DNA from: a virus | Virus record (IMG/VR): IMGVR_UViG_3300008516_000159 | Direction: 5' to 3' (one strand) | DNA length: 64,000 bases | Part shown: piece after piece, positions 30,107 through 61,403 of the stretch | Position numbering within the stretch: position 1 is the stretch's first letter | Layout of the letters: the number at the start of each line of letters is the position of its first letter | Program-made: the position numbers and the translations under genes | Notes under the pieces: model-generated | Databases searched by the model: none | Seen by the model: the letters and a program-made list of their open reading frames with translations, nothing else | Told to the model about the DNA's origin: nothing

Positions 30107-30180
30107 TACCCTCGGCAGGACTCGAACCTGCGATCTCTGCGTTCGAAGCGCAGCATCTTAGTCCACTAGACGACGAGGGC
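30107..30180 (-). tRNA. tRNA-Arg(UCG)
   Basis: Cloverleaf, loop CU-UCG-AA. Confidence 0.92.
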
Positions 30181-30349
30181 TCGGTTTAAAATCAGTGCAA
30201 GCTAGCTCCTTTTGGTTGAGGATTGGGATGTTGTGACTGTCACAATGGCCCAATCCATCATCACAGTTCCAGAGTTGAAAGTGCGCGCAACCAGCGCAAT
30301 GACTCTCACCTAGGAGCAGCTCTCTAGCTATTTCAGCTTTCATCTTCAT
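30158..30349 (-). CDS. KAKxLL/Cys4 small protein
   Basis: IARELLL..CAGCAHF..C..C; stop inside tRNA-Arg. Confidence 0.7.
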   Translation of the reverse strand: MKMKAEIARELLLGESHCAGCAHFQLWNCDDGLGHCDSHNIPILNQKELACTDFKPSPRRLVD

Positions 30350-30350
30350 T

Positions 30351-30424
30351 AGGCCAGGACAGGATTCGGACCTGCATCATCTCGGGTTGCAACCGAGCGC
30401 CTAAGCCATTTCAGCCACCTGGCC
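30351..30424 (-). tRNA. tRNA-Cys(GCA)
   Basis: Cloverleaf, U73, T loop UCCGAAU. Confidence 0.9.
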
Positions 30425-30426
30425 GT

Positions 30427-30696
30427 TTAATCAGAATCGAGGATATCAACAATCTGCCAGTGACAATACTCATCAAACTGACGAGGTTCTAATATCTTTC
30501 TGGCAGCCGCGGCATCACCCTGCGTAGCTTTTTCGTATATCCTGGATTCCATTTCTTTCAGATCATCAAACAATTGCCAATCCTTATCCAGGTAATTAAA
30601 GCACGCGAGAAAAGCTTTTGCCATCAGCTCTTCTGTTGATGCATCCCAGGCTATGGGAGCAATCTTTCTGTTTTCGTACAAAAGTATCCTGTCCAT
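30427..30696 (-). CDS. Hypothetical protein
   Basis: Stop abuts tRNA-Cys. Confidence 0.7.
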   Translation of the reverse strand: MDRILLYENRKIAPIAWDASTEELMAKAFLACFNYLDKDWQLFDDLKEMESRIYEKATQGDAAAARKILEPRQFDEYCHWQIVDILDSD

Positions 30697-30898
30697 GTTT
30701 TCTCCTGTCTATCTTCTTTAATTTAACTTCGTCCTCGGCCTTCATCCGCATTAGATTGTCCATTGCCAGACATCTGCCACAAACAACCTTTTTACGGTTT
30801 GCTTGATGCCACCATCGGTTTCCACAGTCGCACTCTATTAAAAGATAATTAACTCTTGAAGACCAGCGAGCATCAATTATAGCCAGCTTTTTCTGCAT
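30596..30898 (-). CDS. Zinc-ribbon hypothetical protein
   Basis: CDCG...CGRC; tail overlaps next gene. Confidence 0.5.
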   Translation of the reverse strand: MQKKLAIIDARWSSRVNYLLIECDCGNRWWHQANRKKVVCGRCLAMDNLMRMKAEDEVKLKKIDRRKHGQDTFVRKQKDCSHSLGCINRRADGKSFSRVL

Positions 30899-31117
30899 TT
30901 CTCACAACACCTCACACATCAACCCAGATCTACTTTTTTCCAGCGCGAGTGGAAGTACTTTAATTTCTTTTTCATCTTTCTACACTTCTCACAGTACTTC
31001 GTATACTTATGCACTCCTGGGTGATCCTCGCTACCAGTATATCTTTCTATTGTTGGTATCCATACCCAATCATGTTTACACATCACATATATCCTAGGTT
31101 TCTGATATGCCTGCGTT

Positions 31118-31420
31118 TTATCGTGGGATATTTTCTTCTTTTCCTTCCCATTTGTTACAATACATTTCCTTTGGAAATGCTTCTTGTTTCAAGTTTCTCT
31201 CGTCGCAAAAGTAGTACAATCCAGATACTGCGAACTCTGTGTGCATGTGACAACAGTTTTTACAAGAACCAGATTTTAGCAATAGTCTTTTTGCTATTGT
31301 TTTTCTTGAAATATTTTTTAACTTATCTATTGTTTTTTCTAATGGTTCAACTGGCCGCAATTCTTGATTCCACAAAACAGGCATTTGCACCTTATAATAA
31401 TTATTGCTATCGTCGCTCAT
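31118..31420 (-). CDS. KAKxLL/Cys4 protein
   Basis: IAKRLLLKSGSCKNC..C..CNKW. Confidence 0.7.
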   Translation of the reverse strand: MSDDSNNYYKVQMPVLWNQELRPVEPLEKTIDKLKNISRKTIAKRLLLKSGSCKNCCHMHTEFAVSGLYYFCDERNLKQEAFPKEMYCNKWEGKEENIPR

Positions 31421-31443
31421 TAAATTCTCAACCTATATTCTTG

Positions 31444-31529
31444 TGCCCGAGGAGAGATTCGAACTCTCACGACCTTCAAGATCACAAGGCCCTCGACCTT
31501 GCGCGGCTACCTAGTTACGCCACCCGGGC
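31444..31529 (-). tRNA. tRNA-Leu(GAG), long variable arm, C33
   Basis: Loop UC-GAG-GG. Confidence 0.9.
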
Positions 31530-31867
31530 TATTTCCTCTCTTCTGGATCACCGCAAAATATACAGCAATCACTAGATTCGTGATCGGGATTATAACATTT
31601 GAGAATAATTTTCTCCTTGTTTACAGAGACTACATATTTATTCCCAGACTTATCTGTTTTAGAGAAATAATGGCATATGTGATCTGGACTCTTCGGGCAA
31701 TACCAACAAAGAAATTGACCTCCTGTTTTACCGTAACCACCACGGTAACCACAATGTTTACATTCGGCCCCACCATAAACCTTGCTCTTCATTTCGTGCC
31801 AACATTCACCGCGCAGGATTTTCTTAGCTTTTTCTGTCTTTGGCATGCTCTCTGTTTTATATTTCAT
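31529..31867 (-). CDS. Cys-rich protein with KAKKIL
   Basis: Multiple CxxC; CIFCGDPEERK. Confidence 0.7.
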   Translation of the reverse strand: MKYKTESMPKTEKAKKILRGECWHEMKSKVYGGAECKHCGYRGGYGKTGGQFLCWYCPKSPDHICHYFSKTDKSGNKYVVSVNKEKIILKCYNPDHESSDCCIFCGDPEERK

Positions 31868-31868
31868 T

Positions 31869-31941
31869 TGGAGCTGAGGGGATTCGAACCCCTTACCTAC
31901 TGAATGCCATTCAGCCGCTCTCCCAATTGAGCTACAGCCCC
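31869..31941 (-). tRNA. tRNA-Ala(GGC)
   Basis: G3-U70, loop AU-GGC-AU. Confidence 0.93.
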
Positions 31942-31942
31942 T

Positions 31943-34530: not shown

Positions 34531-34604
34531 TACCACCGCCGGGATTCGAACCCAGAACATCTCGCTTTTGAGGCGAGCGCCTCTACCAGTTGCGCTACGG
34601 TGGC
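34531..34604 (-). tRNA. tRNA-Leu(CAA), short variable loop
   Basis: Loop CU-CAA-AA; variable AUGUU; A73. Confidence 0.85.
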
Positions 34605-34616
34605 TCGTAATATTAT

Positions 34617-34805
34617 CTATGTGTCAAAGCGCCTCCAACGCGAGCAACCCTCACTGTTAGGCGCTGTAGAGATTGCATAGTAGAAACAATGATACTCATC
34701 TTGATCATCATTTTTATAAAAGCAGTTGCTGCAGGTTTGATTTCCTAAAAGCAATTGCTTTGCAATCTTCTTCTTCATCGATGTGCTTATTTCGTATCTA
34801 TGCAT
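34617..34805 (-). CDS. KAKxLL/Cys4 small protein
   Basis: IAKQLLL..CSNCFY..C..CSRW. Confidence 0.75.
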   Translation of the reverse strand: MHRYEISTSMKKKIAKQLLLGNQTCSNCFYKNDDQDEYHCFYYAISTAPNSEGCSRWRRFDT

Positions 34806-35368
34806 TCAACAACCCTTGCGTTGAAATTCAGAAACTCTAACCAACCAAACCTTTCTGCCTTGTCTCTGGAAATAACCAGGAACGGCATATATTTGGGCTC
34901 AAATGGCTTCTTGATTAAATGCATGTGAGCTTCCTTTAAGAGCTTGTTGCCCTTTTTGCGGTTACACTTCTTACATGCGGCAACCTGATTCTCCCATGCG
35001 TTAACGTGCGCAGGCCTTATTTTTGGCGATATTTCGTGCCAACGAGAAACAGGAATGACGTGGTCAACCGTTAACTCGTTGATTTGATAACGCTCGCCAC
35101 AGTACATACACTTCATATCATCACGATATATGATGTTTAGACGCGAGTAAACGACCTTGCGCTTTGGAATCTTGTTGAAGTCAAGCAACATGATTACGCG
35201 TGGCAAAGGTATCGACAGATACTGTGACCTGATAGGCTGGGCTTCATCTTCGCGTATTGCGCGCGACTTGCCCAATACCAACGAACAAACGGCTTCCCTG
35301 ACATTACAAACGTCAACCGGAACCATTCCACTGTTCAATGTTAAAACCGGTGCATATAGATTAACCAT
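34787..35368 (-). CDS. HNH endonuclease (McrA-like)
   Basis: RDDMKCMYCG, LTVDHVIP.SR, WEN.VAACKKCNRKKG. Confidence 0.92.
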   Translation of the reverse strand: MVNLYAPVLTLNSGMVPVDVCNVREAVCSLVLGKSRAIREDEAQPIRSQYLSIPLPRVIMLLDFNKIPKRKVVYSRLNIIYRDDMKCMYCGERYQINELTVDHVIPVSRWHEISPKIRPAHVNAWENQVAACKKCNRKKGNKLLKEAHMHLIKKPFEPKYMPFLVISRDKAERFGWLEFLNFNARVVECIDTK

Positions 35369-35381
35369 TTACGCCTCCTAT

Positions 35382-35456
35382 TGGGCGGGGAGGGATTCGA
35401 ACCCTCAACATCCAGATTTTAAATCTGGCGCCTCTACCAAGTTGCGCTACTCGCCC
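35382..35456 (-). tRNA. tRNA-Leu(UAA), short variable loop
   Basis: Loop UU-UAA-AA; variable AUGUU. Confidence 0.85.
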
Positions 35457-35666
35457 CTGTTCTTGTCTATCATATGATTCTTAAGGCGGCCGCCACTATT
35501 GCCGCCACAATCCACACTGCGATTAGTATAAAAAACATGATCTTCGCATTTTTTGGCTGGTTATAGTTTTCCTCTCCTTTTTTGAATTTCTTCACTTTAA
35601 AATCCCACCAGCTTTCCCAAACGTGCCATTTTCTCACAATACCCCCTCCTCATTACATTATCTTTG

Positions 35667-35743
35667 TACCCCGGGGAGGACTCGAACCTCCAGACAACCC
35701 ACGTTCTGAACGTAGTGGCTATACCCGATTCGCCTACCGGGGC
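35667..35743 (-). tRNA. tRNA-Leu(CAG), short variable loop
   Basis: Loop UU-CAG-AA; variable GUUGU. Confidence 0.85.
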
Positions 35744-35748
35744 TAGTG

Positions 35749-35823
35749 TGCCCGCGAGAGGATTCGAACCTCCAACATCACGGTCCTAAGCCGTGCGCCT
35801 CTGCCAGGTTGCGCTACGCGGGC
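35749..35823 (-). tRNA. tRNA-Leu(UAG), short variable loop
   Basis: Loop CU-UAG-GA; variable AUGUU. Confidence 0.87.
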
Positions 35824-36449: not shown

Positions 36450-36761
36450 TTAGACCTTATCAACCGCATCGGCGATTTTTTTATAATATTCCTGCATCTT
36501 TTCAAAAGATTCCTTGTCTAGATACTGACAGCTTAGAAAAGTCGGCATTCCGTTTATTGCCACAGGGCACGCCTTGTTTATGTATTCAAAGATCAAGAAA
36601 GGCTTATTTTTGTTAAATTGTTTTCGAGCCTTTTTGTCCATAAAAGCAAGAGGCATGAATATGTGATCTATGAAAGATTTATTCTCGCACTGCTTGTCGG
36701 TGAAAACCTCGCCCGAATAAATGTCAAGAGCGAGCTGTTTTAGTTCCTCGTTGCTTCTCAT
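36450..36761 (-). CDS. Conserved phage hypothetical protein
   Basis: IFMPLAF...FEYINKACP.AING.PTF.SC.YL. Confidence 0.75.
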   Translation of the reverse strand: MRSNEELKQLALDIYSGEVFTDKQCENKSFIDHIFMPLAFMDKKARKQFNKNKPFLIFEYINKACPVAINGMPTFLSCQYLDKESFEKMQEYYKKIADAVDKV

Positions 36762-36955
36762 TTTCTCACCTCTATTTGTTGATCTCTTTTATAAGAGACA
36801 CAACCTTTAAATCGATCTACATTAATTTTTAGGCCGCCTGCATTATTTATTGTACACCAGTTCGCGAACGCCGCGTAATATTTGCAAGTTGAACAGACAG
36901 AATGAACACTGTCACTTACCAATAAACGTTTGGCTTCTTGAGCTTTATGATTCAA
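36758..36955 (-). CDS. KAKxLL/Cys4 small protein
   Basis: Likely TTG start; EAKRLL..CSTCKY..C..C. Confidence 0.65.
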   Translation of the reverse strand: MNHKAQEAKRLLVSDSVHSVCSTCKYYAAFANWCTINNAGGLKINVDRFKGCVSYKRDQQIEVRK

Positions 36956-37493: not shown

Positions 37494-37509
37494 GCTATTA
37501 TCTATGTCT

Positions 37510-37629: not shown

Positions 37630-37711
37630 TGGGCCGGGGAGGACTCGAACCTCCGAAGTCCGAAGACGTGTGGTTTACAGCCACGTGGAATTGCCACTAT
37701 CCGACCGACCC
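37630..37711 (-). tRNA. tRNA-Tyr(GUA)
   Basis: Loop CU-GUA-AA, long arm GUCUUCGGAC. Confidence 0.92.
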
Positions 37712-37861
37712 TTTTGTTTCTTTTACAACTATCGCATAACATTTATCACAAAGACCGTGAGAAATAACCGGTTCCTTGTATTTAGGATTATCCGGCCATT
37801 CTTCTTCGCGGATGTCTTTACCGCATTTACTACACCGTATTATTGCCTTCATATATTATAT

Positions 37862-38050: not shown

Positions 38051-38269
38051 TTAAGACATATTCACATAATGCTTGTATTTCGGAGGATGTTTTTTCTCCC
38101 AATCGAGGCAGCCAAATTTATCAGGTAGATCTATGATTTTAAAGCTATATAGACCGCACACAGGCTCATCTATATACTTTTGGCGTTCGCTACTTCTTAT
38201 GAACCAGTGACAGTCTACACAGACGTTACCGATCAGAAGTTGTTTGGCTTTTTCTGTTTTCGTTGTCAT
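38051..38269 (-). CDS. KAKxLL/Cys4 small protein
   Basis: EKAKQLLIGNVCVDCHWF..C..CLDW. Confidence 0.75.
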   Translation of the reverse strand: MTTKTEKAKQLLIGNVCVDCHWFIRSSERQKYIDEPVCGLYSFKIIDLPDKFGCLDWEKKHPPKYKHYVNMS

Positions 38270-38411
38270 CACAATACGATGGTTCATAATATTTGCAAGC
38301 TGGAACAGTCTCTGGATCATATATGATCCCACCATCAACTTCACATAAGTGAAAATGATGTGGTGTTCCTGCGCATTTTAGACAAGTTATGCACGTCTTT
38401 TTATCGTTCAT
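38226..38411 (-). CDS. Cys4 small protein
   Basis: CITCLKC..C..CKYY. Confidence 0.65.
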   Translation of the reverse strand: MNDKKTCITCLKCAGTPHHFHLCEVDGGIIYDPETVPACKYYEPSYCDDNENRKSQTTSDR

Positions 38412-39105: not shown

Positions 39106-39318
39106 TCAACGAGGCCGCCGCGCGTCGTTAAGCTCAACAGCACGCCAACGAGTAATCTTTCGCCAATGCTCACATGTTCTCACTAGTGGCAATCTTAGGT
39201 TTTTTGACTCAGGCCTAAACCTATAACATTTTCCCGTAGCATCAAACCAATAACAATTTTCACAAACCTTACCGATTAATAAGCTTTTAGCTCTTATCGC
39301 TTTATGAATTTTTCGCAT
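39106..39318 (-). CDS. KAKxLL/Cys4 small protein
   Basis: RAKSLLIGKVCENCYWF..C..CEHW. Confidence 0.75.
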   Translation of the reverse strand: MRKIHKAIRAKSLLIGKVCENCYWFDATGKCYRFRPESKNLRLPLVRTCEHWRKITRWRAVELNDARRPR

Positions 39319-39512
39319 GTTCTTGTCAATGGCGTCATAACCTTAAGATTGTGACATTCTCCATCTAAGATTTTCAGCTTGCAACCGAAAGCCCTAATCA
39401 TTTCTTCTGCATCTGGCAATGTCTCAAATATCAACTGCTTCGGAAACACGCAGTTGTTGCATGTTTTGTCCGTCAAAATGGCCATGGCTGTTTGTTTTTT
39501 ATCTAACTTCAT
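39294..39512 (-). CDS. KAKxLL/Cys4 small protein (diverged)
   Basis: TAMAILTDKTCNNC..C..CEKF. Confidence 0.7.
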   Translation of the reverse strand: MKLDKKQTAMAILTDKTCNNCVFPKQLIFETLPDAEEMIRAFGCKLKILDGECHNLKVMTPLTRTCEKFIKR

Positions 39513-39527: not shown

Positions 39528-39599
39528 TAGGCCCTGAGGGAATTGAACCCCCGGCACCTAGATTAAGAGTCTAGTGTTCTTCCGCTGAACTAAGGGCCC
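39528..39599 (-). tRNA. tRNA-Lys(CUU)
   Basis: Loop CU-CUU-AA. Confidence 0.9.
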
Positions 39600-40024
39600 G
39601 GTATAACTGAGTAATCTTCAGCCAAATGAACTCTCTGTTGTTGATTGTTCTTAGCTGGTTCTACTCTTAATGATATATTATCACCAGAAAAATCTACTAT
39701 AGGTATAAAATATAACCTTTTATTATTTGGACAATAAACGACAACCAAATCAATTTCATCTTTTCTGGCTGGTCTCCTCCGCTTTCCTTGGTAAGGTCCT
39801 GAACTACTTATATCAACAAGCAACGCTCCATTGGTTTTTTTCCCTTCGCGAATAGAAATATATTTTACTTGGACTCTTAAACACTTTCCGTTCTTATACG
39901 CAATAAAGTCAAATGGCAAATGCTCGCTTATTGTTGTAAAAATATAGTATCCACTTTCCGCAAAAGACAATTGAGCTTTGTAGACGGCCAAATCTCCTTT
40001 ATCTGCAGTAGGGTGTTTATTCAT
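39590..40024 (-). CDS. PD-(D/E)XK endonuclease, I-Ssp6803I-like
   Basis: KGDLA...PFDFI...RVQVK...ID.VVVYCP...LYFIP; stop inside tRNA-Lys. Confidence 0.88.
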   Translation of the reverse strand: MNKHPTADKGDLAVYKAQLSFAESGYYIFTTISEHLPFDFIAYKNGKCLRVQVKYISIREGKKTNGALLVDISSSGPYQGKRRRPARKDEIDLVVVYCPNNKRLYFIPIVDFSGDNISLRVEPAKNNQQQRVHLAEDYSVIPGP

Positions 40025-40218
40025 TAAGAGCCCCTATTTTCAAAACGCTCACAATACTTTGGCATTTCGATTATTTCGCCAGTCTTGTCACAATAATATT
40101 TATTTAAAGCAAATGATACATTTCTCCATATGCAAGACTCGCAGTTTTCATTCTTGAGAATATGTTTTGCAACTTTAGACTTGTTCACTTTTACCTGTCC
40201 AAAATTCACACGTGCCAA
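40024..40218 (-). CDS. KAKxLL/Cys4 small protein
   Basis: VAKHILKNENCESCIW..C..CERF. Confidence 0.7.
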   Translation of the reverse strand: MARVNFGQVKVNKSKVAKHILKNENCESCIWRNVSFALNKYYCDKTGEIIEMPKYCERFENRGS

Positions 40219-40390
40219 ATGTAGGCCTCTGCTTCATATCGTGAGTGTGATTTTTTTCCGGCCAAGCGTAATGAGACTGATCTCTACACCAGCTTTTAAA
40301 AGAGATGCCTTCGTAGTCAAGACATTCCTGGCATTTATGGCCAGTTAATAAATGTTTGGCTATTTTTGCTATTTTTTTAATTGCTATCAC
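40175..40390 (-). CDS. KAKxLL/Cys4 small protein
   Basis: IAKHLLTGHKCQECL..C..CEFW. Confidence 0.7.
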   Translation of the reverse strand: MIAIKKIAKIAKHLLTGHKCQECLDYEGISFKSWCRDQSHYAWPEKNHTHDMKQRPTFGTCEFWTGKSEQV

Positions 40391-40830: not shown

Positions 40831-41277
40831 CTAGGACACTGGTGTGAATCTCCCCTGTTTACTTAGATCCCTCCTTTCATAAGCCCATTTGGAGCGACAG
40901 GATTTCGAACAAAACGTGTTTGTAATTCCTCTTTTCATCCTCTTGCGATGATCTCGCTCTAATCTTTCAAACCGCATGCCGCATTCGTTGCACACGAGAG
41001 TGATTTGTGGAGATTTTCGCGGCCGAGGACGGTTGCGCTTTCTGTGGCTAAAAGCGATATTATCCAAATCAAAGAAAAGTTCGATTGGATCCTTGCTGTG
41101 TAGCCACGGCACCTTATGTTCTATACTCAACTCATCGGCGCCTTCAATCCTCTTTCCGCATCGAAAACAAACATCTTCTCCCAAACGTCGAACCATATTG
41201 AACAACAACATTTTTTTCAGTTTGGAGGCGGCAGTTGTGTGGCTCACACCCAACTGTTCTTTTTTGGAGTCACTCAT
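40831..41277 (-). CDS. HNH-family endonuclease with C-terminal Zn finger
   Basis: CFRCG..SIEHKVPW..LDNIAFSH..N; CNECG..FCSKSC. Confidence 0.78.
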   Translation of the reverse strand: MSDSKKEQLGVSHTTAASKLKKMLLFNMVRRLGEDVCFRCGKRIEGADELSIEHKVPWLHSKDPIELFFDLDNIAFSHRKRNRPRPRKSPQITLVCNECGMRFERLERDHRKRMKRGITNTFCSKSCRSKWAYERRDLSKQGRFTPVS

Positions 41278-41729: not shown

Positions 41730-41903
41730 CTATATCTCCATAGCCGATTCATCGATACAACTAGCACAGAGCCAATGTTTAGTATAATCACCATACATGT
41801 CGGCAGCATATGGATCTTCAGTGTATTCTGCGTTAGGATTGCCACACCTTTCGCAGGGTTTGGATAATAAAAGCTCTTTTGCTTTTTCGGCCTTTTGTTT
41901 CAC
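41730..41903 (-). CDS. KAKELLL Zn-finger paralog (not in ORF track)
   Basis: GTG start; KAEKAKELLLSKPCERCG..EDPY..KHWLCASC. Confidence 0.75.
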   Translation of the reverse strand: MKQKAEKAKELLLSKPCERCGNPNAEYTEDPYAADMYGDYTKHWLCASCIDESAMEI

Positions 41904-42127
41904 GTGTTAACCCCCTGTGATAACGCGAACCATTTTGAAAGATCTCTGTCTGTTGGAATTGCCACATCTAATTCTTCGAGACAATTGTAGCAAAGCCAAT
42001 GTTTATCATGGTTATCGAACATCTCAGCATCATACGGATCTTCAACGTATATTGCGTCAGCGTTGCCACACCTGTCACAAGGTTTAGATAACAAAAGCTC
42101 TTTTGCTTTTTTGGTCTTTTCTTTCAT
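41900..42127 (-). CDS. KAKELLL Zn-finger paralog
   Basis: KAKELLLSKPCDRCG..EDPY..KHWLCYNC. Confidence 0.8.
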   Translation of the reverse strand: MKEKTKKAKELLLSKPCDRCGNADAIYVEDPYDAEMFDNHDKHWLCYNCLEELDVAIPTDRDLSKWFALSQGVNT

Positions 42128-42138
42128 GACATTATCTA

Positions 42139-42300
42139 TTACGCGTCAACTGAAACACATTTATCACAAAGCCAATGTTTAGTGTGATAACCGTTGGCCA
42201 GAAGAAATGGATCTTCAACTTTCGTAGCGTTAGGGTTGCCACACCTTTCACACGGCTTGGATAATAAAAGCTCTTTTGCTTTTTCGGTTTTTTCTTTCAT
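42139..42300 (-). CDS. KAKELLL Zn-finger paralog
   Basis: KAKELLLSKPCERCG..EDPF..KHWLCDKC. Confidence 0.8.
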   Translation of the reverse strand: MKEKTEKAKELLLSKPCERCGNPNATKVEDPFLLANGYHTKHWLCDKCVSVDA

Positions 42301-42316
42301 GGCATTATCTATGTCT

Positions 42317-42415: not shown

Positions 42416-42643
42416 TCAGCATCTATTATTGGCTAGCACTATTTCAAGTCTACAGGCTCGACACACACTCAATATGGTACCGTCTTCTAATCGTTCCCAA
42501 CCAAAGTATTTACACATATACCTTCTTGGATAATAATGCCCACATATTTCACACTTGTATTTCCTTCTCCTCATTTTAGCGCACTCTTCACAACAGTACC
42601 TGGATAATAAAAAATCCTTTGCTTTTTTGGTCTTTTTCTTCAC
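42416..42643 (-). CDS. KAKxLL Zn-finger protein
   Basis: KAKDFLL; CEICG..CRAC. Confidence 0.7.
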   Translation of the reverse strand: MKKKTKKAKDFLLSRYCCEECAKMRRRKYKCEICGHYYPRRYMCKYFGWERLEDGTILSVCRACRLEIVLANNRC

Positions 42644-42662
42644 GGCCTTATCTATGTCTCAA

Positions 42663-43595: not shown

Positions 43596-43683
43596 CGGAG
43601 AGCTAGAGATTCGAACTCTAAAAGCAACAATTGTCGCTTTACTGCTTTTCGAAAGCAGCTCCTCATCCAACCGGATGCCCTCC
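43596..43683 (-). tRNA. tRNA-Ser(CGA)
   Basis: Loop UU-CGA-AA, long arm, G73. Confidence 0.9.
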
Positions 43684-44082
43684 ATTATATTTCTCGTAGT
43701 ATTTTTTTCGATATCTATTATAATTATTATTACAACCCCTATTTCTACCTGCAAATGTAGTTGTTTGGCTATTACAGTTAGAACAAATAAGTCTCAAATT
43801 ATTTTTGCTGTGATTTATATTATTTCCGTCAATATGATCCAATACAAATATAAGATCTTTGTTGTTCCAAACATTTTCCATTCCACATATGGCGCATTGA
43901 TTATTCTGTTCACTTAATAGATATCGTCTGATCCAAATACCAGGCTTTTTAGATGTTGCTCCACTTTTTAGCCATTCTATAATATATATTTCTTCGCGAT
44001 GTCTTCTACTACAGCTGTCACAACATTCGCTGTTGCTGTAAATCTTTCTTCCACAATTACAAATTTTATTCTTTTGTGGCAT
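43663..44082 (-). CDS. HNH endonuclease
   Basis: CAICG..LDHIDGN..N..NLRLICSNCNSQT; stop inside tRNA-Ser. Confidence 0.9.
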   Translation of the reverse strand: MPQKNKICNCGRKIYSNSECCDSCSRRHREEIYIIEWLKSGATSKKPGIWIRRYLLSEQNNQCAICGMENVWNNKDLIFVLDHIDGNNINHSKNNLRLICSNCNSQTTTFAGRNRGCNNNYNRYRKKYYEKYNGGHPVG

Positions 44083-44716
44083 GCATATATTCCTTTACTG
44101 GTTTGTAGCTTCTTCTGTGTATCTCACAAGGTCCGTATTTCAGCAGGCCCTTGATGTGTTCTCTTGTCGGATAACCTTTGTTTTTATCAAAATGGTAACC
44201 GTCAAAATGGTAGTTCATATCTATCATATGATCATCTCTTATTACTTTAGCCAAGATGCTTGCCGCAGCAACAGCCAAACTTTTGTCTTCGCCATATACA
44301 AATGAAATAGTCGGTACTTTTAAATATAACCAGTTTAATTTAACAGCATCCACCATTACATATTCTAGTGTTTTACTATACTTGGCTAAATCTTCTCGAG
44401 CAGAAATTATAGCCATTTTCATCGCCATTTTCGTGGCTTTCAATATGTTTATGTCATCTATAGTAAAGGCGTGAACAGTTCCCCAACCATAGGCAACAGC
44501 GCTGCTTTTTATATCAACACACAATCTTCTTCTCTGCCAATTAGTAAGCTTCTTGGAATCTTTTATGCCTTGCGGTATATTGTCGTAATCCAACACCACA
44601 CAGGCCGCAATAACCGGGCCAGCTAAACTTCCACGGCCAGCTTCATCTACTCCAGCTATTGTGTAGTACCCAAGATTCCTCAGGAAATCATCTATCTTGT
44701 TCATCTTCAGCACCAA
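44066..44716 (-). CDS. rnhB: Ribonuclease HII
   Basis: AGVDEAGRGSLAGPV, DSKKL, VDA, VAAASILAKV.RD, NKGYPT..H, HRRSY. Confidence 0.95.
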   Translation of the reverse strand: MVLKMNKIDDFLRNLGYYTIAGVDEAGRGSLAGPVIAACVVLDYDNIPQGIKDSKKLTNWQRRRLCVDIKSSAVAYGWGTVHAFTIDDINILKATKMAMKMAIISAREDLAKYSKTLEYVMVDAVKLNWLYLKVPTISFVYGEDKSLAVAAASILAKVIRDDHMIDMNYHFDGYHFDKNKGYPTREHIKGLLKYGPCEIHRRSYKPVKEYMHATKE

Positions 44717-44963
44717 GCTGGCTTAACCACATTTCTAATTGATGATAGAAATCATCATCGAAAGCTACCTTTTCCATGAAGGCCCATATGACTTGTTTGT
44801 TCTTAACTTCGTCCCATAGTTCCTTTGTGATCTTTTTAGCCAATTGATATTCATAGCCCGCTTTCCAGCATTTTTCGCAACAATATTCACTTTCCCAGAA
44901 ATTAGACAGACTGCAGCTGGTGCAGTGATGATATTTTTTACCACAACTTTTACATATAGCCAT
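44688..44963 (-). CDS. Cys-rich hypothetical protein
   Basis: CKSCG..CTSC..CCEKC. Confidence 0.7.
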   Translation of the reverse strand: MAICKSCGKKYHHCTSCSLSNFWESEYCCEKCWKAGYEYQLAKKITKELWDEVKNKQVIWAFMEKVAFDDDFYHQLEMWLSQLGAEDEQDR

Positions 44964-45110: not shown

Positions 45111-45196
45111 CGGAAGGCCGGGGATTCGAACCCCGAAGCCACTTGCGCGACCAACAGATTAGCAATCTGTCCGACTACCAATTATCGCAGCCTTCC
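45111..45196 (-). tRNA. tRNA-Ser(GCU)
   Basis: Loop UU-GCU-AA, long arm with GCAA loop. Confidence 0.92.
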
Positions 45197-45600
45197 AAAA
45201 ATTCCTTATAAAAAGGCCTCTCGTTAGATTTCTTTTTTTTAGCTTCCAACACTCTTATAGAAAAATAATGCTCACAACTGCCGTCTAAGTGTTTTTTTGA
45301 AATATACAACACTTTATCTACATCTGGAACATATACTGCCCAACCATCTATTAAATCCATGTCTATAGCCACTTCTTTGCTATTTACAACATTGTAAAAA
45401 GGTATATGAATCAAACCTTCCCAGCCTTTTCTATTAACCGATCTATACTTCACTTGCAGTCTTACGGTCTTTGATCCTTTGACCGCAATCAGATCAACAG
45501 AGGAATAATCTCCGAATGGCAAGAAGATTTCGTAACCTCTATCGATTAAATCGTCAATTACTTTAGTTAAGCCTTTTACGCCCTTTTCGTTTGTGTTCAC
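45175..45600 (-). CDS. PD-(D/E)XK endonuclease, I-Ssp6803I-like
   Basis: EKG...PFGDYSSVDLI...RLQVKY..ID.WAVY.P; stop inside tRNA-Ser. Confidence 0.88.
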   Translation of the reverse strand: MNTNEKGVKGLTKVIDDLIDRGYEIFLPFGDYSSVDLIAVKGSKTVRLQVKYRSVNRKGWEGLIHIPFYNVVNSKEVAIDMDLIDGWAVYVPDVDKVLYISKKHLDGSCEHYFSIRVLEAKKKKSNERPFYKEFLEGCDNW

Positions 45601-48478: not shown

Positions 48479-48709
48479 TTACCATATCATTTCGGAAAGT
48501 AACCACTTTTCACATATTCTAGAGAACGGTATCACCACGCCATCTGGCCCGAATTTAATATCCCCCCTGCTGTTATGAGGGTCGCAATCTGACGGATACA
48601 TGCAACTTTTATCGTAATAATGACAGCTGTCGCACGATCTACCATATTGCAAAAGGAGCTTTGCACGTTCTATTTTTGTTCGACCAGGTATTGATACACA
48701 AGACATCAC
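48479..48709 (-). CDS. KAKxLL/Cys4 paralog
   Basis: RAKLLLQYGRSCDSC..CEKW. Confidence 0.75.
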   Translation of the reverse strand: MMSCVSIPGRTKIERAKLLLQYGRSCDSCHYYDKSCMYPSDCDPHNSRGDIKFGPDGVVIPFSRICEKWLLSEMIW

Positions 48710-48993
48710 TCAAACCGCTTCGCCGCTTCTCTTTCAGCCTGAATAGAGGTAACTGCCAGTTCAGCAAGCGCCCATCTGGCACATACTCTCATTTCTGGTA
48801 TTTCGCCATGACGCGCCGACAAACCGCGATCTAAGCCGACCGTGCATTTTTCATTAGGACCATAAAAATCATAAGCCAATGATTCTTCGCAATGATGATT
48901 AAAATATTCACAGCTATCGCAAGATCTGCCGTATTTCAAAAGTAGCTTGCTGCGCACTATTTTTATTTGACTCTCTTCTGCTACGTAATGCAT
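48706..48993 (-). CDS. KAKxLL/Cys4 paralog
   Basis: RSKLLLKYGRSCDSC..CARW. Confidence 0.75.
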   Translation of the reverse strand: MHYVAEESQIKIVRSKLLLKYGRSCDSCEYFNHHCEESLAYDFYGPNEKCTVGLDRGLSARHGEIPEMRVCARWALAELAVTSIQAEREAAKRFE

Positions 48994-49004
48994 TTTTTCG
49001 TGTT

Positions 49005-49271
49005 TTAATCAGCCTCTTCGTCATCTTCAAACGTTACTTCAGATATTTTTAGCTTAGCGAGCACCCAGCTGTCGCATGTTCTTGTTTCCGGTAAATCTAA
49101 GCCTCGCTCTGTGGTTAACATACACGCCTCGCTGAAGCCATAAAAACCATGATCCCGTGGCTCCTTGCAATTATAATCAAAGTGTTCGCAGCTATCGCAA
49201 GATTTGCCGTATTTCAAAAGCAGCTTAGTGCGCTCTGTTTTTATTTGACTCTCTTTTGGTACGTAATACAT
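49005..49271 (-). CDS. KAKxLL/Cys4 paralog
   Basis: RTKLLLKYGKSCDSC..CDSW. Confidence 0.75.
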   Translation of the reverse strand: MYYVPKESQIKTERTKLLLKYGKSCDSCEHFDYNCKEPRDHGFYGFSEACMLTTERGLDLPETRTCDSWVLAKLKISEVTFEDDEEAD

Positions 49272-49474
49272 TCAGATAGTATCCAGTAACCGCACATCTT
49301 TTCTTTTGGCATATCGCCGAAAACACAATCTACGTAATCCTCTCCATCAAACGTTTTGAGCAAACAATAATAATTGACTTTAAAACGACCGCAACTTTCA
49401 CAAGCTCGTCCACATCTTAAAATTAATTTAGCTTGTTCTCTCTTTATTTCATTTTCATCTGTTCTGTAATACAT
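49241..49474 (-). CDS. KAKxLL/Cys4 paralog
   Basis: QAKLIL.CGRACESC..CGYW. Confidence 0.75.
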   Translation of the reverse strand: MYYRTDENEIKREQAKLILRCGRACESCGRFKVNYYCLLKTFDGEDYVDCVFGDMPKEKMCGYWILSECITYQKRVK

Positions 49475-49494
49475 TTCATACTTATATATGTATG

Positions 49495-50580: not shown

Positions 50581-51410
50581 TTAACCCTTTCATTCCCTTA
50601 CGGTTTGGGTGCTATCCAAACCTTAGGAACTTATCCACCGATCCAGGACCGGTAGGTTAACACAGCTGCTTTTTTATACTGGTAGCGGTTCCAGTGTCGC
50701 ACTGAATCACTCGGCTATCTGGGTACCGTCAGCCTTGCGAGCTGTAAAGAGGCGCTAACCTCACCGTGCTCCTTTCAACCAACCTTCCGCCGCCTTGCGA
50801 GCCTTGGAAAGTCCATATTCCCCGAAGGGTACGGAGTTGAGCTGCTTTCATCCAGCACCGGGTCAGTCTTTGCAGATATTCCAACGTATCGGAATCGAAC
50901 CGATCACATTATGCTCCTCAAGGCATACGCTCTACCAAACTGAGCTAACATTGATAAAACGGGTCACCCCGCGGCAACACCGTGCTAACCCACCAGTTTC
51001 ATAGGCTTTTGGCCTACGGAATGCCGGACGGTGCTTGTCTTTCCCTTGCCAGGTACTGAACGGTTTTTCAAGATCGATGTGCTCCCAACGCATACCGTTG
51101 GGCGGATATGCCCACCAACCTATCAAACTGCTATGAGGCGCTCACTTGCGAGGCTCGCACAACATAACTACTGTTCACTCTCCTGTTTGACCGATTTTGG
51201 TTGCAAGTAATCGATTTCCAGTCGAAAGAAATAATGCCAGTGTTACCCACATCATTTCCTGTCCTTGCTCGGCGTCCACACAAGCTCCGCGAGGACCGCG
51301 AAGCCATTGGAGTGTCAGCTTGCTTGAATTGACCATCCGAAGATGGCGACGGTCGCCAACCCGCCTTTACAGTCCTTGCGAACTGCTGTCAATGTCAAGC
51401 CACTATATAC
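50579..51410 (-). ncRNA. Large ornate ncRNA, GOLLD-like, with embedded tRNA
   Basis: About 830 nt GC-rich, no credible ORF, over 10 hairpins with GCAA/UUCG loops, long-range GUUAACC/GGUUAAC, own promoter motif and terminator. Confidence 0.7.
50880..50954 (-). tRNA. Embedded tRNA-like domain with 8-nt anticodon loop (CUUGAGGA)
   Basis: D arm GCUC AGUUUGGUA GAGC; stem UAUGC/GCAUA; T arm AUCGG UUCGAUU CCGAU. Confidence 0.75.
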
Positions 51411-51484: not shown

Positions 51485-51703
51485 TTAATAACCGCTTATC
51501 TCAATACTTCTGGATGTTCCACAGCCAGGGCACTTAACATCAACAGAAAGTTCTCCGTGAGATCCACAAAGCTCACAAGGACTACTCCAGTGATTAAACG
51601 CAAACTCGTCAACTTTCACTCTGTGTGATTTATCACACTTGCTGCAGTGAAACTTCACAGTAATACTTTCTAAAGTGAATTCGATCTTCTTGCCTCTGGC
51701 CAT
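51485..51703 (-). CDS. Zinc-ribbon protein
   Basis: CSKC, CELCG, CPGC; RBS aggagg. Confidence 0.75.
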   Translation of the reverse strand: MARGKKIEFTLESITVKFHCSKCDKSHRVKVDEFAFNHWSSPCELCGSHGELSVDVKCPGCGTSRSIEISGY

Positions 51704-52052: not shown

Positions 52053-52136
52053 TTATTTGTTGGCGCTACAAGCAGATCTTACACTACACCATGGTAGTTA
52101 GTTTGGGATCTTGGCAGGGAAGCGCCAACTTCAGTG

Positions 52137-52211
52137 TGCCCGAGAGAGGAGTTGAACCTCCAAATTACACTGGTTCTAAGCCAGCAGCCTTTGCCATTTA
52201 GCCACTCGGGC
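52137..52211 (-). tRNA. tRNA-Leu(UAG) second copy, short variable loop
   Basis: Loop CU-UAG-AA; variable GUAAUU. Confidence 0.85.
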
Positions 52212-52357: not shown

Positions 52358-52555
52358 TTATTTCAAAGACCATTTATCACAGCCCCTGTTAAATATAACA
52401 TCGAGGACTAAATCTTTTTTCAAAAAACAATACTCATATACTCCAATTGGAGGACCGGCATCATCCTCTTTACAGTGCCGGCAATTACTGCATCTCTTTC
52501 CGTGCTTTAAAAGATCCTTGGCTGCATCCCTCTTCGCGTCTGACCTGCCAGTCAT
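52358..52555 (-). CDS. KAKxLL/Cys4 paralog
   Basis: AAKDLLKHGKRCSNC..CDKW. Confidence 0.75.
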   Translation of the reverse strand: MTGRSDAKRDAAKDLLKHGKRCSNCRHCKEDDAGPPIGVYEYCFLKKDLVLDVIFNRGCDKWSLK

Positions 52556-52697
52556 CACAATTCTTTCCTTTTTGCAGGTGCACAGTTGGTGTCGAATCGA
52601 AAAAACACATCCTAGCTCTTTGAACCACGCTAGCATACACACAATTACTGCATCCTCTTCCGTGCTTTAAAAGATCCTTGACTAATTCACGTTTCAT
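52485..52697 (-). CDS. KAKxLL/Cys4 paralog
   Basis: LVKDLLKHGRGCSNC..CDDW. Confidence 0.7.
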   Translation of the reverse strand: MKRELVKDLLKHGRGCSNCVYASVVQRARMCFFDSTPTVHLQKGKNCDDWQVRREEGCSQGSFKARKEMQ

Positions 52698-52900
52698 TGC
52701 CAGTATTTACATATCCCATCTACTGGAAACGCCATTGCGTATTTACCGGCATCCCCTTTTTCGTATCTACGATACTCAGAAGTGCAAAAAGCAATCGACA
52801 TACAAGTACGCCCGTCGGGGTTCAGAGCCATAAACTCACAACTCCGACACACTTTCCCGTATTTTAAAAGCCTCTTGGCTTTATTAGCAGACCGCTTCAT
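52694..52900 (-). CDS. KAKxLL/Cys4 paralog
   Basis: KAKRLLKYGKVCRSC..CKYWQ. Confidence 0.8.
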   Translation of the reverse strand: MKRSANKAKRLLKYGKVCRSCEFMALNPDGRTCMSIAFCTSEYRRYEKGDAGKYAMAFPVDGICKYWQ

Positions 52901-53103
52901 TGCCAGTATTTACACACCCTCTCTTCTGGTAACGGCATAGTATCTATCAACATAAAACGGTACTTCTTCGTGAGCCTGAGTTCATGATCACAGCGATAAA
53001 AAGGCTCATCATTCACTGTGAAAGCGTGGCTATGAAACTCGCAACTCCGACACTCTTTCCCGTATCTTAAAAGATCCTTAGCTTTACTCACAGACTGTTT
53101 CAT
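52897..53103 (-). CDS. KAKxLL/Cys4 paralog
   Basis: KAKDLLRYGKECRSC..CKYWQ. Confidence 0.8.
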   Translation of the reverse strand: MKQSVSKAKDLLRYGKECRSCEFHSHAFTVNDEPFYRCDHELRLTKKYRFMLIDTMPLPEERVCKYWQ

Positions 53104-53123
53104 CGCACGATTATATATGTCGC

Positions 53124-58246: not shown

Positions 58247-58467
58247 TGGTTAACTCGTGAAACACTAAACACAATGGAGCCAAGACATAATATTAACACC
58301 ACAAAACAACAAAAAGGATCTACGCTGTTGAACCTTGCTTCAATATTTAATATGACGAACACGATCAACCATGGGAAAAACAAAAGGAGTGTGTTACAAA
58401 ATTTTCTGTAGCTGCTCAGACCATCGTACCATATGTTATATTTCTGAAAGAATTTTTTAATTGTCAA
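58228..58467 (-). CDS. Small membrane protein
   Basis: Two TM segments. Confidence 0.65.
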   Translation of the reverse strand: MTIKKFFQKYNIWYDGLSSYRKFCNTLLLFFPWLIVFVILNIEARFNSVDPFCCFVVLILCLGSIVFSVSRVNHWSKKR

Positions 58468-58697
58468 CGGTAACTACCTTCATTTGCCGACCAATACAAT
58501 TCTATACCAAGAATTCGAGCTCTTGTGTCCGCACATTCAGGGCAGAGCAGGCCAGCTTCACCTTCTTTGGGTGTTATTATTTTCCATACTTCATCAGGTA
58601 CAAGGTAGACTGTTTCATATGCTTTGCCACAAACCTGACAATGTTCCATAGTACCTAAAGAGTCCTCATCCAAAGTTGTTCCATCCCATTGATCCAT
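58464..58697 (-). CDS. Zn-binding hypothetical protein
   Basis: CQVCG..YLVPDEVW..LCPEC. Confidence 0.7.
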   Translation of the reverse strand: MDQWDGTTLDEDSLGTMEHCQVCGKAYETVYLVPDEVWKIITPKEGEAGLLCPECADTRARILGIELYWSANEGSYR

Positions 58698-59465: not shown

Positions 59466-59647
59466 TAATCCAACACCTCTAAAATATCAATATTACCAAC
59501 CCACTCGCCTTTGTTCATTTCAACGACAATCATGTCCGTGTTAGGAATTTGGCGCACCTTTTCAACCTTGCCCCTTATACTGTGTCCGAATGCGCTTTTG
59601 TGTTCAACCGTTTTACCGACCAGCTTGCGAGCCTCTTCTAATGTCAT
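59465..59647 (-). CDS. Small SH3-like protein
   Basis: LVGKTVEH..GKVEKV. Confidence 0.65.
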   Translation of the reverse strand: MTLEEARKLVGKTVEHKSAFGHSIRGKVEKVRQIPNTDMIVVEMNKGEWVGNIDILEVLD

Positions 59648-60006
59648 TCCTCTTCATACCTTTCTGGATTTTCACTAATAGTCACAACCAATTCATTACC
59701 ATCAGTGCTGAACATGTAATATGTCTCGCCGAATTCAGGTTCTATTCTTATATTCAAAGGCTCTTCTGTCTCGTCTAAAGCTCTTAATACAAAAGTAGAA
59801 TGAGGTCCGTATTGAGTAAGATTGTGTGTCACAAAATCATAGGGACCCGTGCTGCTATGCGTGCTATATATAAAACCGGCGACTGTTATTTCACCACACA
59901 TTAACTCCCATCGTCCACTATAACTTACCTGGACTTTGTAGCATTGCGCGAACAGCGGCACGCCAATCAAAAGAAAAATCAATGTAAGAAAAATCAGCTT
60001 TTTCAA
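59644..60006 (-). CDS. Secreted hypothetical protein
   Basis: TTG start, RBS aggagg, signal ending PLFA. Confidence 0.7.
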   Translation of the reverse strand: MKKLIFLTLIFLLIGVPLFAQCYKVQVSYSGRWELMCGEITVAGFIYSTHSSTGPYDFVTHNLTQYGPHSTFVLRALDETEEPLNIRIEPEFGETYYMFSTDGNELVVTISENPERYEEE

Positions 60007-60032
60007 AAAACCTCCTATATATAAAATCGAAA

Positions 60033-60290
60033 AGCAGGTGGGCGTCCAACGGATTATCCTCTTAACGCATTATAATCGGCCATAAGATCAAATAAATCTA
60101 ATCTTTTAATTTTGATTTACTGGTCCTATTATCCATTAATTTTAACGCGGCGTAATGAGAGGTATTTCACCTACTCGCATTTTTCTAGTTACCGCGGCGG
60201 TCTATTCCCATCGCTGTCACTAATGGCCTAGTCTGTCTTTCCAGATTGTCAGCGCGTATCCCTCCTGTTTAAGTTTTAGCGGGACCTGCT
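60033..60290 (-). ncRNA. Candidate structured ncRNA (about 258 nt)
   Basis: Closing AGCAGGU/ACCUGCU; inner CGCUG/CAGCG, UCUG/CAGA, GGCCAU/AUGGCC, GGUCC/GGACC, AGGU-GAAAU-ACCU; no ORF. Confidence 0.55.
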
Positions 60291-60324
60291 CTCCAATTTC
60301 AAAGAACAAATTTGTGCTATTCTT

Positions 60325-60411
60325 CTGTCCCGGCTGGATTCGAACCAGCGTTCACCTTGTAAGGGCCTTTGATTTAACGGACCAACGCTCTACCAGCTGA
60401 GCTACGGGACA
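60325..60411 (-). tRNA. tRNA-Asn(GUU) with long variable arm, C33
   Basis: U1-A72, G73, loop CC-GUU-AA, 19-nt arm containing CCUU-ACA-AGG. Confidence 0.82.
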
Positions 60412-60420
60412 TCAACCAGG

Positions 60421-60687
60421 TTAATCACTGTCATCTAGCATATTCTTTACTGCCTGACTCACAGGGTTTCTTTCGTCTACCAGATCGTGTATATTAATCG
60501 GCGTACCATATTTATCAGTCAACGATTTATATTCCGCGACAAATACCCCATCTTTGATTACGACTGCGCCGCCATAATCTAGATATATACCGTCTGGAAT
60601 AAAGACCTTGTCGCCTATTTTATAAGCATTAAGCTCACATGGGCCAACTTTGAGCTGACAATCTCCATAACAATCATACACTCCCAC
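60421..60687 (-). CDS. Conserved phage hypothetical protein
   Basis: MGVYDCY..QLKVG..IPDGIY. Confidence 0.7.
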   Translation of the reverse strand: MGVYDCYGDCQLKVGPCELNAYKIGDKVFIPDGIYLDYGGAVVIKDGVFVAEYKSLTDKYGTPINIHDLVDERNPVSQAVKNMLDDSD

Positions 60688-60929
60688 TACTCTACCTCCT
60701 TCGGTAAATCCAGGGTTCCCAAGAGTTTTTGGGCAACAACTCGCGAGATTTGGACCTTACAATGAGGATTTTTCCATTTCTCATCCCTTTTCAAATCAAT
60801 AGCCCCTGGATAATCCGGTGAATATCCATTAGCCATAACTTCTAGGCATTTTGGATCTATTCTTAACTCTGATAATAAATCAAAAACGGCATTTTGTAAA
60901 GCATTATAATCTTTCATATTTACCCCCAT
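60687..60929 (-). CDS. Hypothetical protein
   Basis: Coupled. Confidence 0.65.
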   Translation of the reverse strand: MGVNMKDYNALQNAVFDLLSELRIDPKCLEVMANGYSPDYPGAIDLKRDEKWKNPHCKVQISRVVAQKLLGTLDLPKEVE

Positions 60930-61132
60930 ACAACATCAAACTTCCTTTTACCATCATCAAGTTGCCAATCTTTACAGTATGACAAATCGTTTATTATTAA
61001 AGACTCCAATGGTCCCTTGCCCTTGTCGACCAAAAGGAGACAATAGCCATTTGATGTCTTAAAATTACAAGTTCTGCAAAATTTGTTGGCCAATAATCTT
61101 TTAGCCAGCAAAAATTTCTTTTTCTTTCTCAT
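60920..61132 (-). CDS. KAKxLL/Cys4 small protein
   Basis: LAKRLLANKFCRTC..C..CKDW. Confidence 0.75.
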   Translation of the reverse strand: MRKKKKFLLAKRLLANKFCRTCNFKTSNGYCLLLVDKGKGPLESLIINDLSYCKDWQLDDGKRKFDVVWG

Positions 61133-61403
61133 TCTGCCGCCACCAGGTGTGCCGTCTCGCGCGCCAGCGGGGAGATAGAGTTCGCGCGATGAACTGCTGG
61201 ATGCGGCCGCAGGCCGGTACCCATCGCTCACAATATTTGATCCTGCTAATATCACTACGCCTCACGGTATTTATCTTAAATACGGAACCATGCCCTGTTA
61301 TTCTTAACCAACAATAACCGTTTGATGACGCGTAATCGCAGTTTTGACATCCTCGATTAAGCAGAGCGCCCTTTGCCAGTACTTTCTTTTTCGATTTATT
61401 CAA
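61101..61403 (-). CDS. KAKxLL/Cys4 small protein
   Basis: LAKGALLNRGCQNC..C..CERW. Confidence 0.7.
   Translation of the reverse strand: MNKSKKKVLAKGALLNRGCQNCDYASSNGYCWLRITGHGSVFKINTVRRSDISRIKYCERWVPACGRIQQFIARTLSPRWRARRHTWWRQNEKEKEIFAG

Follow-up and report, generated by a model that had tools for sequence, protein, structure and literature searches.

A family of four-cysteine miniproteins with a HiPIP-like signature, expanded in tandem in huge phages

High-potential iron-sulfur proteins (HiPIPs, PF01355) are exported and serve as periplasmic electron carriers. Among phage proteins, the zinc-ribbon miniproteins (Lar-type, DZR-type) are small, Cys-rich accessory proteins, while the internal proteins (IPs) IPI-IPIII of T4 combine a short conserved leader with hypervariable small bodies in a plastic multi-gene locus beside the T4 tRNA cluster. 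HiPIP-like [4Fe-4S] modules also occur as small subunits that clamp onto glycyl-radical enzymes (GREs). In these proteins, of which HPAD-gamma is one of several, the cluster is needed for structural integrity, and the known examples (HPAD-gamma, BSS-beta/gamma and MASS-beta/gamma) are accessory subunits rather than proven electron carriers (2026 review, PMC13450708). Here we describe a family of miniproteins with four conserved Cys (Cys4 miniproteins) encoded by 23 genes in a 64,000-nucleotide stretch of viral DNA (IMG/VR record IMGVR_UViG_3300008516_000159), hereafter the window, which is part of a 148,677-bp metagenomic contig from a huge phage.

The genes define a real protein family for which a HiPIP-like signature is supported and which displays a striking tandem expansion in huge phages. 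By contrast, the tRNA-centred reading proposed in an initial annotation, which had been made from the letters of the window, is not supported. We assign a probability of roughly 0.6 to the view that the 23 genes are paralogues within a widespread, unannotated family of metal-cluster miniproteins that has been amplified in accessory regions and whose products likely act as binders or modulators; within this view we infer the identity of the cofactor, how the leader packs and that the proteins act as binders.

A census of the family was based on a hidden Markov model (HMM) built from 99 sequences from outside the window, 11 close orthologues of window genes having been dropped so that the search was not circular. 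Applied to both strands of the window (1,188 stop-to-stop frames of >=30 aa in all), the model recovered 23 frames, with E-values from 5.8e-14 to 3.2e-4. All of these are on the minus strand, while the best plus-strand frame scored E 0.34, and a regular expression for the leader followed by CxxC..C likewise matched 21 times on the minus strand and never on the plus strand. The family is genuine and protein-coding. The initial annotation had reported more than 20 such proteins, and the 23 frames cover every coordinate that it listed except 42416-42643. The members and their nearest relatives are as follows, with E-values from the census HMM and, where orthologues in related phages were compared, the ratio of non-synonymous to synonymous change (dN/dS).

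6398-6640, minus strand: member outside the tRNA array, 80 aa, with an extra Cys insertion (E 2.3e-8; alignment A1)
24864-63454, minus strand: array of 42 tRNA genes found by ARAGORN, holding 22 of the 23 members
29846-30091, minus strand: borderline divergent relative (E 0.038)
30158-30349, minus strand: member whose ATG lies 1 nt after tRNA-Cys and whose 3' end overlaps tRNA-Arg(tcg) by 23 nt (E 8.3e-6)
31118-31420, minus strand: member with an N-terminal extension, start uncertain (E 2.2e-11)
31529-31867, minus strand: borderline frame with a leader-like N-terminus and another Cys-rich body (E 0.066)
34617-34778, minus strand: member directly downstream of an HNH endonuclease gene (E 3.5e-12; dN/dS 0.22 against the orthologue in L011)
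36758-36955, minus strand: member with an uncertain TTG start, 13 nt after tRNA-Lys(ttt) (E 7.5e-5; dN/dS 0.58 against the orthologue in L011)
38051-38269, minus strand: member whose start possibly lies upstream, up to 38344 (E 5.3e-13; dN/dS 0.48)
39106-39318, minus strand: member with the top HMM score, AlphaFold model 1 (E 5.8e-14; pLDDT 77.5)
39294-39512, minus strand: member 16 nt after tRNA-Lys(ctt) (E 6.8e-8; dN/dS 0.30)
40024-40188, minus strand: member with a 1-nt overlap with the start of a PD-(D/E)XK endonuclease gene (E 1.1e-9; dN/dS 0.19-0.24)
40175-40390, minus strand: member 16 nt after tRNA-Ile(gat), absent in the relative L007 (E 9.7e-10)
41730-41903, 41900-42127 and 42139-42300, minus strand: three variant members with the family leader and a CxxC..CxxC body (E 1.5e-4, 6e-6 and 3.2e-4)
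42416-42643, minus strand: relative that shares the leader alone and has another multi-Cys body, placed outside the family by the HMM (E 2.6)
48479-48706, 48706-48993, 49005-49271 and 49241-49474, minus strand: tandem cluster of four (E 2.8e-8, 9.3e-8, 2.1e-10 and 3.7e-5)
52358-52555, 52485-52697, 52694-52900 and 52897-53103, minus strand: tandem cluster of four (E 7.1e-8, 1.5e-9, 3.9e-9 and 7.5e-10)
60920-61132 and 61101-61403, minus strand: two overlapping members, the second overlapping a Tad6-like gene by 4 nt (E 9.1e-8 and 1.6e-7)

Members in the window are mostly 53-100 aa long. Their alignment displays four invariant Cys, a leader helix in which Lys and Leu-Leu are nearly invariant, a Pro 4-5 residues ahead of the last Cys and a Trp or Phe three residues past it; the invariant Cys and aromatic columns are common to alignments A1, A2 and A4. 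The first Cys stands at a median of 15 residues from the N-terminus, usually 3-5 residues after the leader, and the span from the second to the fourth Cys (23-61 residues) usually contains exactly one further Cys. The inter-Cys loops vary in both length and sequence while the leader and Cys stay constant, in agreement with the earlier statement that these elements persist as the bodies diverge. Canonical members carry one CxxC and two single Cys, the two-knuckle CxxC..CxxC arrangement being confined to the variant subtype at 41730-42300, which makes weak matches to zinc-ribbon-type Pfam models. Four copies of this subtype had been counted; those at 41730, 41900 and 42139 are indeed members, whereas the frame at 42416-42643 shares the leader alone. 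The same region also holds small Cys-rich open reading frames (ORFs) without the leader on the minus strand (38226-38411, 37697-37852, 51485-51703, 44688-44963, 58464-58697 and 30596-30898), which by eye resemble zinc ribbons; that at 38226-38411 resembles a leaderless family body, with an insignificant HMM score.

The family is widespread. Among 1.84 billion cluster representatives, a profile search returned 181 proteins at E<=1e-3, and nearly all of the 150 best are of 53-150 aa with the same leader and Cys architecture, their consensus, which is clearer still than in the window, being roughly I-A-K-N-L-L-x-x-K-T-C-D-N-C ... C ... P-x-E-x-T-C-x-x-W. A few two-domain or truncated relatives lack the leader (P0007, P0100 and P0106). 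Pfam, PHROGs and NCBIfam gave no credible match and contain no model covering the family. Profile matches in the named protein collection carried neither names nor domains, and a search of that collection for longer fused forms found none, which is weak evidence. No match to two members was obtained by tblastn against the deposited (GenBank) phage genomes, a search of poor sensitivity for queries of 70-87 aa; single window proteins used as queries in IMG/VR found no relatives, and a literature search found no description of the family, which is apparently undescribed.

Tandem arrays are the rule for the family and its amplification is general. Within IMG/VR it is found on contigs of 41-388 kb, and the huge-phage contigs contain 9-32 HMM matches each. 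Two short contigs have three and four tandem copies beside dCMP-deaminase and thymidylate-synthase-like genes, and a 216-kb contig has at least four members within 20 kb. The most extensive example is a 114-kb IMG/VR contig (G001) with 22, 14 and 3 HMM matches in three loci (a second model finds 32), including 21 members in one unbroken 5.1-kb tandem run. The capsid protein of this phage is of the Gp23 type, its closest deposited relative (31% identity) being that of a 595-kb uncultured phage. For the part of the window from 29 to 64 kb, its 39 tRNAs and 83 minus-strand genes were ordered and the labels permuted in 20,000 shuffles. Pairs of neighbouring family members numbered 11 against 3.5 expected, a value reached in 0 of 20,000 permutations. 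A tRNA was the immediate neighbour of 11 of the 22 members in the array, compared with 45 of the 61 other genes (shuffled mean 14.8, P(>=11)=0.99), an adjacency that is no higher than chance and is lowered because the family sits in tandem blocks. The earlier statement that nearly all members abut or overlap tRNA genes was thus overstated: tandem clustering, not tRNA adjacency, is the significant feature.

Within the clusters, adjacent genes overlap by 4 nt at 48706, 41900, 52694, 52897 and 61400, which suggests translational coupling; the other two junctions of the cluster at 48479-49474 are a 12-nt gap and a 31-nt overlap. The clusters also share a promoter-like motif, ACATA(G/T)ATAA, which occurs 52 times in the window at <=1 mismatch (27±5 expected) and in its relaxed form is biased in strand (22 minus, 2 plus).

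1576-1585, 18305-18314, 34613-34622, 37498-37507, 42305-42314, 42648-42657, 49482-49491 and 53111-53120, minus strand: examples of ACATA(G/T)ATAA

The motif stands 4-9 nt ahead of the start codons of the cluster-first genes at 53103 (7 nt before its ATG), 49474, 42643 and 42300, and is equally placed before two other ORFs and the gene for the DNA polymerase III alpha subunit (1570). Copies also precede the mature 5' ends of the tmRNA and of tRNA-Leu(caa), by 7-8 nt, and the motif often follows a tRNA 3' end by 2-3 nt. This arrangement suggests that ACATA(G/T)ATAA is a phage promoter from which leaderless or near-leaderless transcripts would be made.

The resemblance to HiPIPs was evaluated with two profiles that share no sequence, A2 (92 members) and A5 (IMG/VR array members only). 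Searched against all PDB sequences, A2 returned a spurious repeat protein and then five different HiPIPs (E 0.1-0.35), in alignments that run from the CxxC to the C-terminal CxxW and match all four cluster ligands. Four of the five PDB matches of A5, including the top two, were HiPIPs (E 0.36-1.9). With both profiles the four cluster Cys and two aromatic positions stand in register, and hhalign against a HiPIP C-terminal segment gave a probability of 54% with all four Cys aligned in the same way. Among the 92 members of A2, four matched Pfam HIPIP (best E 0.0046), which ties as the most recurrent family; the members in the window gave no HIPIP match, and none scored above a Pfam gathering threshold. 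As HiPIPs make up a minute fraction of the PDB, these weak lines taken together point to a real shared ligand signature, and the suggestion that the Cys spacing recalls HiPIPs is supported by two independent profiles whose best genuine PDB matches are HiPIPs. With Cys and aromatics in the HiPIP register, the core would most likely be a Cys4-ligated [4Fe-4S] cluster and is probably iron-sulfur (HiPIP-like), although in the choice of cofactor we favour [4Fe-4S] over Zn by little better than even odds.

The shared features are the C-x2-C ... C ... C order, an aromatic residue two positions after the second Cys, a Trp three residues after the last Cys, and a small loop-rich domain that ends just past this last motif. 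Unlike HiPIPs, the phage proteins contain no export signal: ahead of the first Cys is a Lys-rich, family-specific helix of only 11-20 residues that is neither a hydrophobic nor a twin-Arg signal. They differ further in the widely varying lengths of their inter-Cys loops and in being phage-encoded in dozens of copies. The sub-threshold Pfam scores, the lack of an export signal, the distinct helix and the variable loops indicate that the proteins are HiPIP-like rather than HiPIPs.

Two AlphaFold models, predicted without cofactor (pLDDT 77.5 and 74.2), agree on a helix at the N-terminus together with a knuckle, loops and a small hairpin. The fold comparison returned no significant match: with VIA, model 1 had none, and the sole match of model 2, to HPAD-gamma (2y8n_B; Z 2.2 over 38 residues), is below significance. 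Neighbours in BFVD are uncharacterised phage miniproteins, one of which was labelled HiPIP-like by its depositors. The GRE small subunits are miniproteins of similar size with a Cys4 [4Fe-4S] cluster but, unlike the phage family, are single-copy. No GRE partner was present among the annotated neighbours of the phage genes, a genome-wide search not having been made.

Short contigs of related phages (73-93% nucleotide identity) retain the order of tRNAs and miniprotein genes. Thirteen window members were compared with these fragments in 19 comparisons, giving dN/dS of 0.19-0.66, against 0.11 for an IMPDH-type gene and 0.06 for an HNH gene. These values indicate that the genes evolve rapidly while under purifying selection. 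Between paralogues, dN of the loops is 2-5 times that of the scaffold in the less diverged pairs, the difference being smaller or absent in the most saturated ones; as synonymous sites between paralogues are saturated, their dN/dS permits no judgement on positive selection. Single members and endonuclease genes are present or absent between relatives. Thus L007 lacks both 40175-40390 and the PD-(D/E)XK gene, and the cluster at 48-49 kb differs in copy number in L006. The free-standing endonuclease genes dispersed in the tRNA array are HNH-like (34787-35368, 40831-41277 and 43663-44082) or of the PD-(D/E)XK type (39590-40024, absent from close relatives, and 45175-45600), consistent with a plastic, homing-prone region.

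These observations can be combined in the following model. Each protein would be one small stand-alone metal-cluster domain that begins with a short amphipathic helix (consensus I-A-K-x-L-L); the CxxC knuckle comes next, usually after 3-5 residues, followed by two further invariant Cys, the last in a (P-x4)-C-x-x-W motif. The core would most likely hold the [4Fe-4S] cluster or, alternatively, a structural Zn site. The leader helix is probably packed onto the cluster, as its tight spacing from the first Cys favours a structural cap over the docking helix proposed at the outset; the leaderless relatives, and the variant body on the same leader, make it possible that the leader may have a role separate from that of a cap. 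The conserved parts, predicted to form a minimal core, are the hydrophobic side of the leader helix, the four Cys together with neighbouring Thr, Asn and aromatic residues, and the Pro-x4-Cys-x2-Trp end, while the two inter-Cys loops and the C-terminal tail would form a variable surface. The genes would multiply by tandem duplication in accessory regions, with gains and losses between close relatives, and the promoter-like motif precedes the leading gene of each tandem cluster. The dozens of divergent copies, their gain and loss and the intermediate dN/dS suggest a scaffold that presents variable binding surfaces, and the pattern is consistent with a diversified library on a common scaffold. 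The proteins would then most likely constitute a set of cytoplasmic binders or modulators of host or phage macromolecules, acting in takeover or counter-defence, which would parallel the HiPIP-like subunits that clamp GREs with a structural cluster. Co-location with tRNAs would on this model reflect shared residence in a plastic accessory region in some lineages, and not a tRNA-directed function.

Several observations weigh against this interpretation. The HiPIP signal was never significant in any single test, Pfam HIPIP matched 0 of 45 members of the independent set, and Foldseek against the PDB found nothing at E<=0.001 for either model. Four-Cys miniproteins are more often Zn sites. The binder role, while the most likely one, is deduced from architecture alone. 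Finally, 22 of the 23 members, and 11 of 12 independent loci, lie inside the tRNA array, which constitutes 55% of the 73 kb examined (binomial P ~0.008 for 11 of 12 loci), and in a second huge phage, L013, two tRNAs flank a tandem run of four members, so that there may be a functional tRNA link that is specific to certain lineages.

The alternative that fares best is that the four Cys hold a structural Zn and that the proteins bind DNA or RNA as small regulators of gene expression in phage or host. In addition to the prevalence of Zn in such miniproteins, this view draws on the zinc-ribbon pattern of the variant subtype, a feature shared with the phage zinc-ribbon miniproteins, and on the median pI of 8.7 among window members, several of which have K/R-rich tails. 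The pI range, however, reaches from 10.7 down to 4.8, canonical members have one CxxC with two isolated Cys and HiPIP-type aromatics instead of the second knuckle of a zinc ribbon, and 20-40 divergent regulators in one genome would be unusual. We therefore judge the Zn-regulator role to be unlikely.

A link with the capsid is suggested by at least 12 outside members that carry C-terminal copies of segments of the capsid protein. One segment, spanning Gp23 profile positions 6-45 and including a 'VSVQPM' block, is present in P0028, P0107, P0110, P0111 and P0143; another, in P0067 and P0105, corresponds to positions 128-194, which we take to include the spine helix. Further capsid-fragment members are L013:10472-10843, L001:1052-1456 and L002:66-398. 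Both segments are highly similar to the capsid proteins of the phages themselves, and in the 250-kb contig G002 such a fragment is the only Gp23 match. We considered whether family ORFs had been inserted into the capsid gene and rejected this, as the fused forms sit in tandem family arrays by nucleotide-metabolism genes. The 'VSVQPM' block, a conserved N-terminal part of the capsid protein, probably corresponds to Gol, the region through which EF-Tu is bound and the Lit protease triggered (PMC3014915). The proteins could accordingly be pictured as a combinatorial library of Fe-S-stabilised counter-defence binders, in which the capsid-fragment members would decoy or block sensors of the major capsid protein (Lit-, CapRel-, TIR- or STAND-type); we rate this specific version of the binder role as rather improbable.

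The capsid fragments may also be read in another way, in which the leader is a capsid-targeting sequence, as in the T4 IPs, and the proteins are packaged and injected with variable anti-defence bodies. A conserved short leader, a hypervariable body, multiple copies and fast evolution all parallel the T4 IPs, and the phages that carry the family have Gp23-type capsids. The prohead protease of T4 cleaves at (L/I)-x-E sites, which the leader resembles where it ends in L-L-E, as it does in 25 of 99 outside members. This Glu is, however, found in only that quarter of the outside members and in 0 of 23 members in the window, so that the leader as a prohead-protease site is largely rejected for this phage. 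Furthermore, 3-5 residues separate the leader from the first ligand Cys, the models place the leader within the domain, and T4 IPs are without a Cys4 core. We also rejected the idea that the leader was copied from the N-terminus of the capsid protein, which it resembles only vaguely. A role as packaged internal proteins thus appears distinctly unlikely.

The original proposal was that the proteins are tRNA-linked effectors, placed among the tRNAs for co-expression, which protect phage tRNAs or inhibit host anticodon nucleases. The residence of most window members in the tRNA array and the arrangement in L013 speak for such a role, as do the synteny with the same tRNAs in relatives and an RNA ligase gene that flanks the array. 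Members and tRNAs share a strand, several members start 1-23 nt past a tRNA 3' end, and the gaps are 1-26 nt, making their co-transcription plausible. Within the array, however, adjacency to tRNAs is lower for the family than for other genes, and elsewhere most arrays are without tRNAs: G001 combines 32-39 copies with zero tRNA and G003 nine members with one, while loci L001-L004 and nine of ten IMG/VR loci are tRNA-free. In G002 (60 tRNAs) and G004 (58 tRNAs) members occur both inside the tRNA zones and tens of kb outside them, and the charge of the proteins is not uniformly basic. With adjacency no higher than chance and the largest arrays on a tRNA-free contig, a role in tRNA protection or nuclease inhibition is not supported, and we regard a tRNA-directed function as very unlikely. 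Least probable of all are true electron carriers, phage HiPIPs serving radical-SAM or other redox enzymes, for although the ligand signature is HiPIP-like and radical-SAM genes lie near arrays in L003 and L012, the copies are highly divergent and number dozens per genome, signal peptides are lacking, no redox partner is consistently adjacent, and a HiPIP-like module can serve a purely structural purpose, as it does in the GRE small subunits (PMC13450708).

The remainder of the window conforms to a huge phage. It encodes an N-terminal part of DNA polymerase III alpha, a DnaB-type helicase, a Toprim primase, an RNA ligase (29175-29843, minus strand, at the edge of the tRNA array) and RNase HII, together with a GMP-reductase/IMPDH-type enzyme, a dihydroorotate dehydrogenase fusion, a Tad6-like Thoeris inhibitor, and HNH and PD-(D/E)XK endonucleases. 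The Tad6-like protein (61400-62083, minus strand) matches the type I Thoeris inhibitor at E 2e-41 and contains an insertion of ~80 residues with a KAKRLL stretch; it is the 3' end of its gene that overlaps the family member by 4 nt. ARAGORN identified a tmRNA in addition to the 42 tRNA genes, all on the minus strand between 17.9 and 63.5 kb. The tmRNA (17946-18297, minus strand) specifies the tag ANETLALAA. Two more tRNA-Glu genes are located just past the right end of the window, and the array stops ~2 kb beyond it. An amber-suppressor-type tRNA with the anticodon CTA (24864-24935, minus strand) and a tRNA-like gene with an apparent four-base anticodon, tgag (50880-50954, minus strand), raise the question of stop-codon recoding or frameshift suppression in the phage. 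Among the six tRNA-Leu genes (34531-35823 and 52136-52211, minus strand), five are only 74-78 nt long by ARAGORN, too short for the long variable arm of class II tRNAs. An RlaP RNA-repair gene lies close to a family array in G001.

This is a large, conserved family with dozens of tandem copies in huge phages, yet Pfam, PHROGs and NCBIfam leave it without annotation. As regards the original claim, the outcome is a useful negative, in that tRNA adjacency should not guide functional tests. The fusions with capsid fragments hint at a possible connection to immune systems that sense the capsid. If the reading preferred here, of a diversified HiPIP-like miniprotein family, is correct, the proteins would provide the first known case of a HiPIP-type module in a phage protein that is cytoplasmic and multi-copy, and would represent a natural minimal metal-cluster scaffold diversified through its loops. 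They would also explain a noticeable share of the 'dark' small genes in the accessory regions of huge phages.

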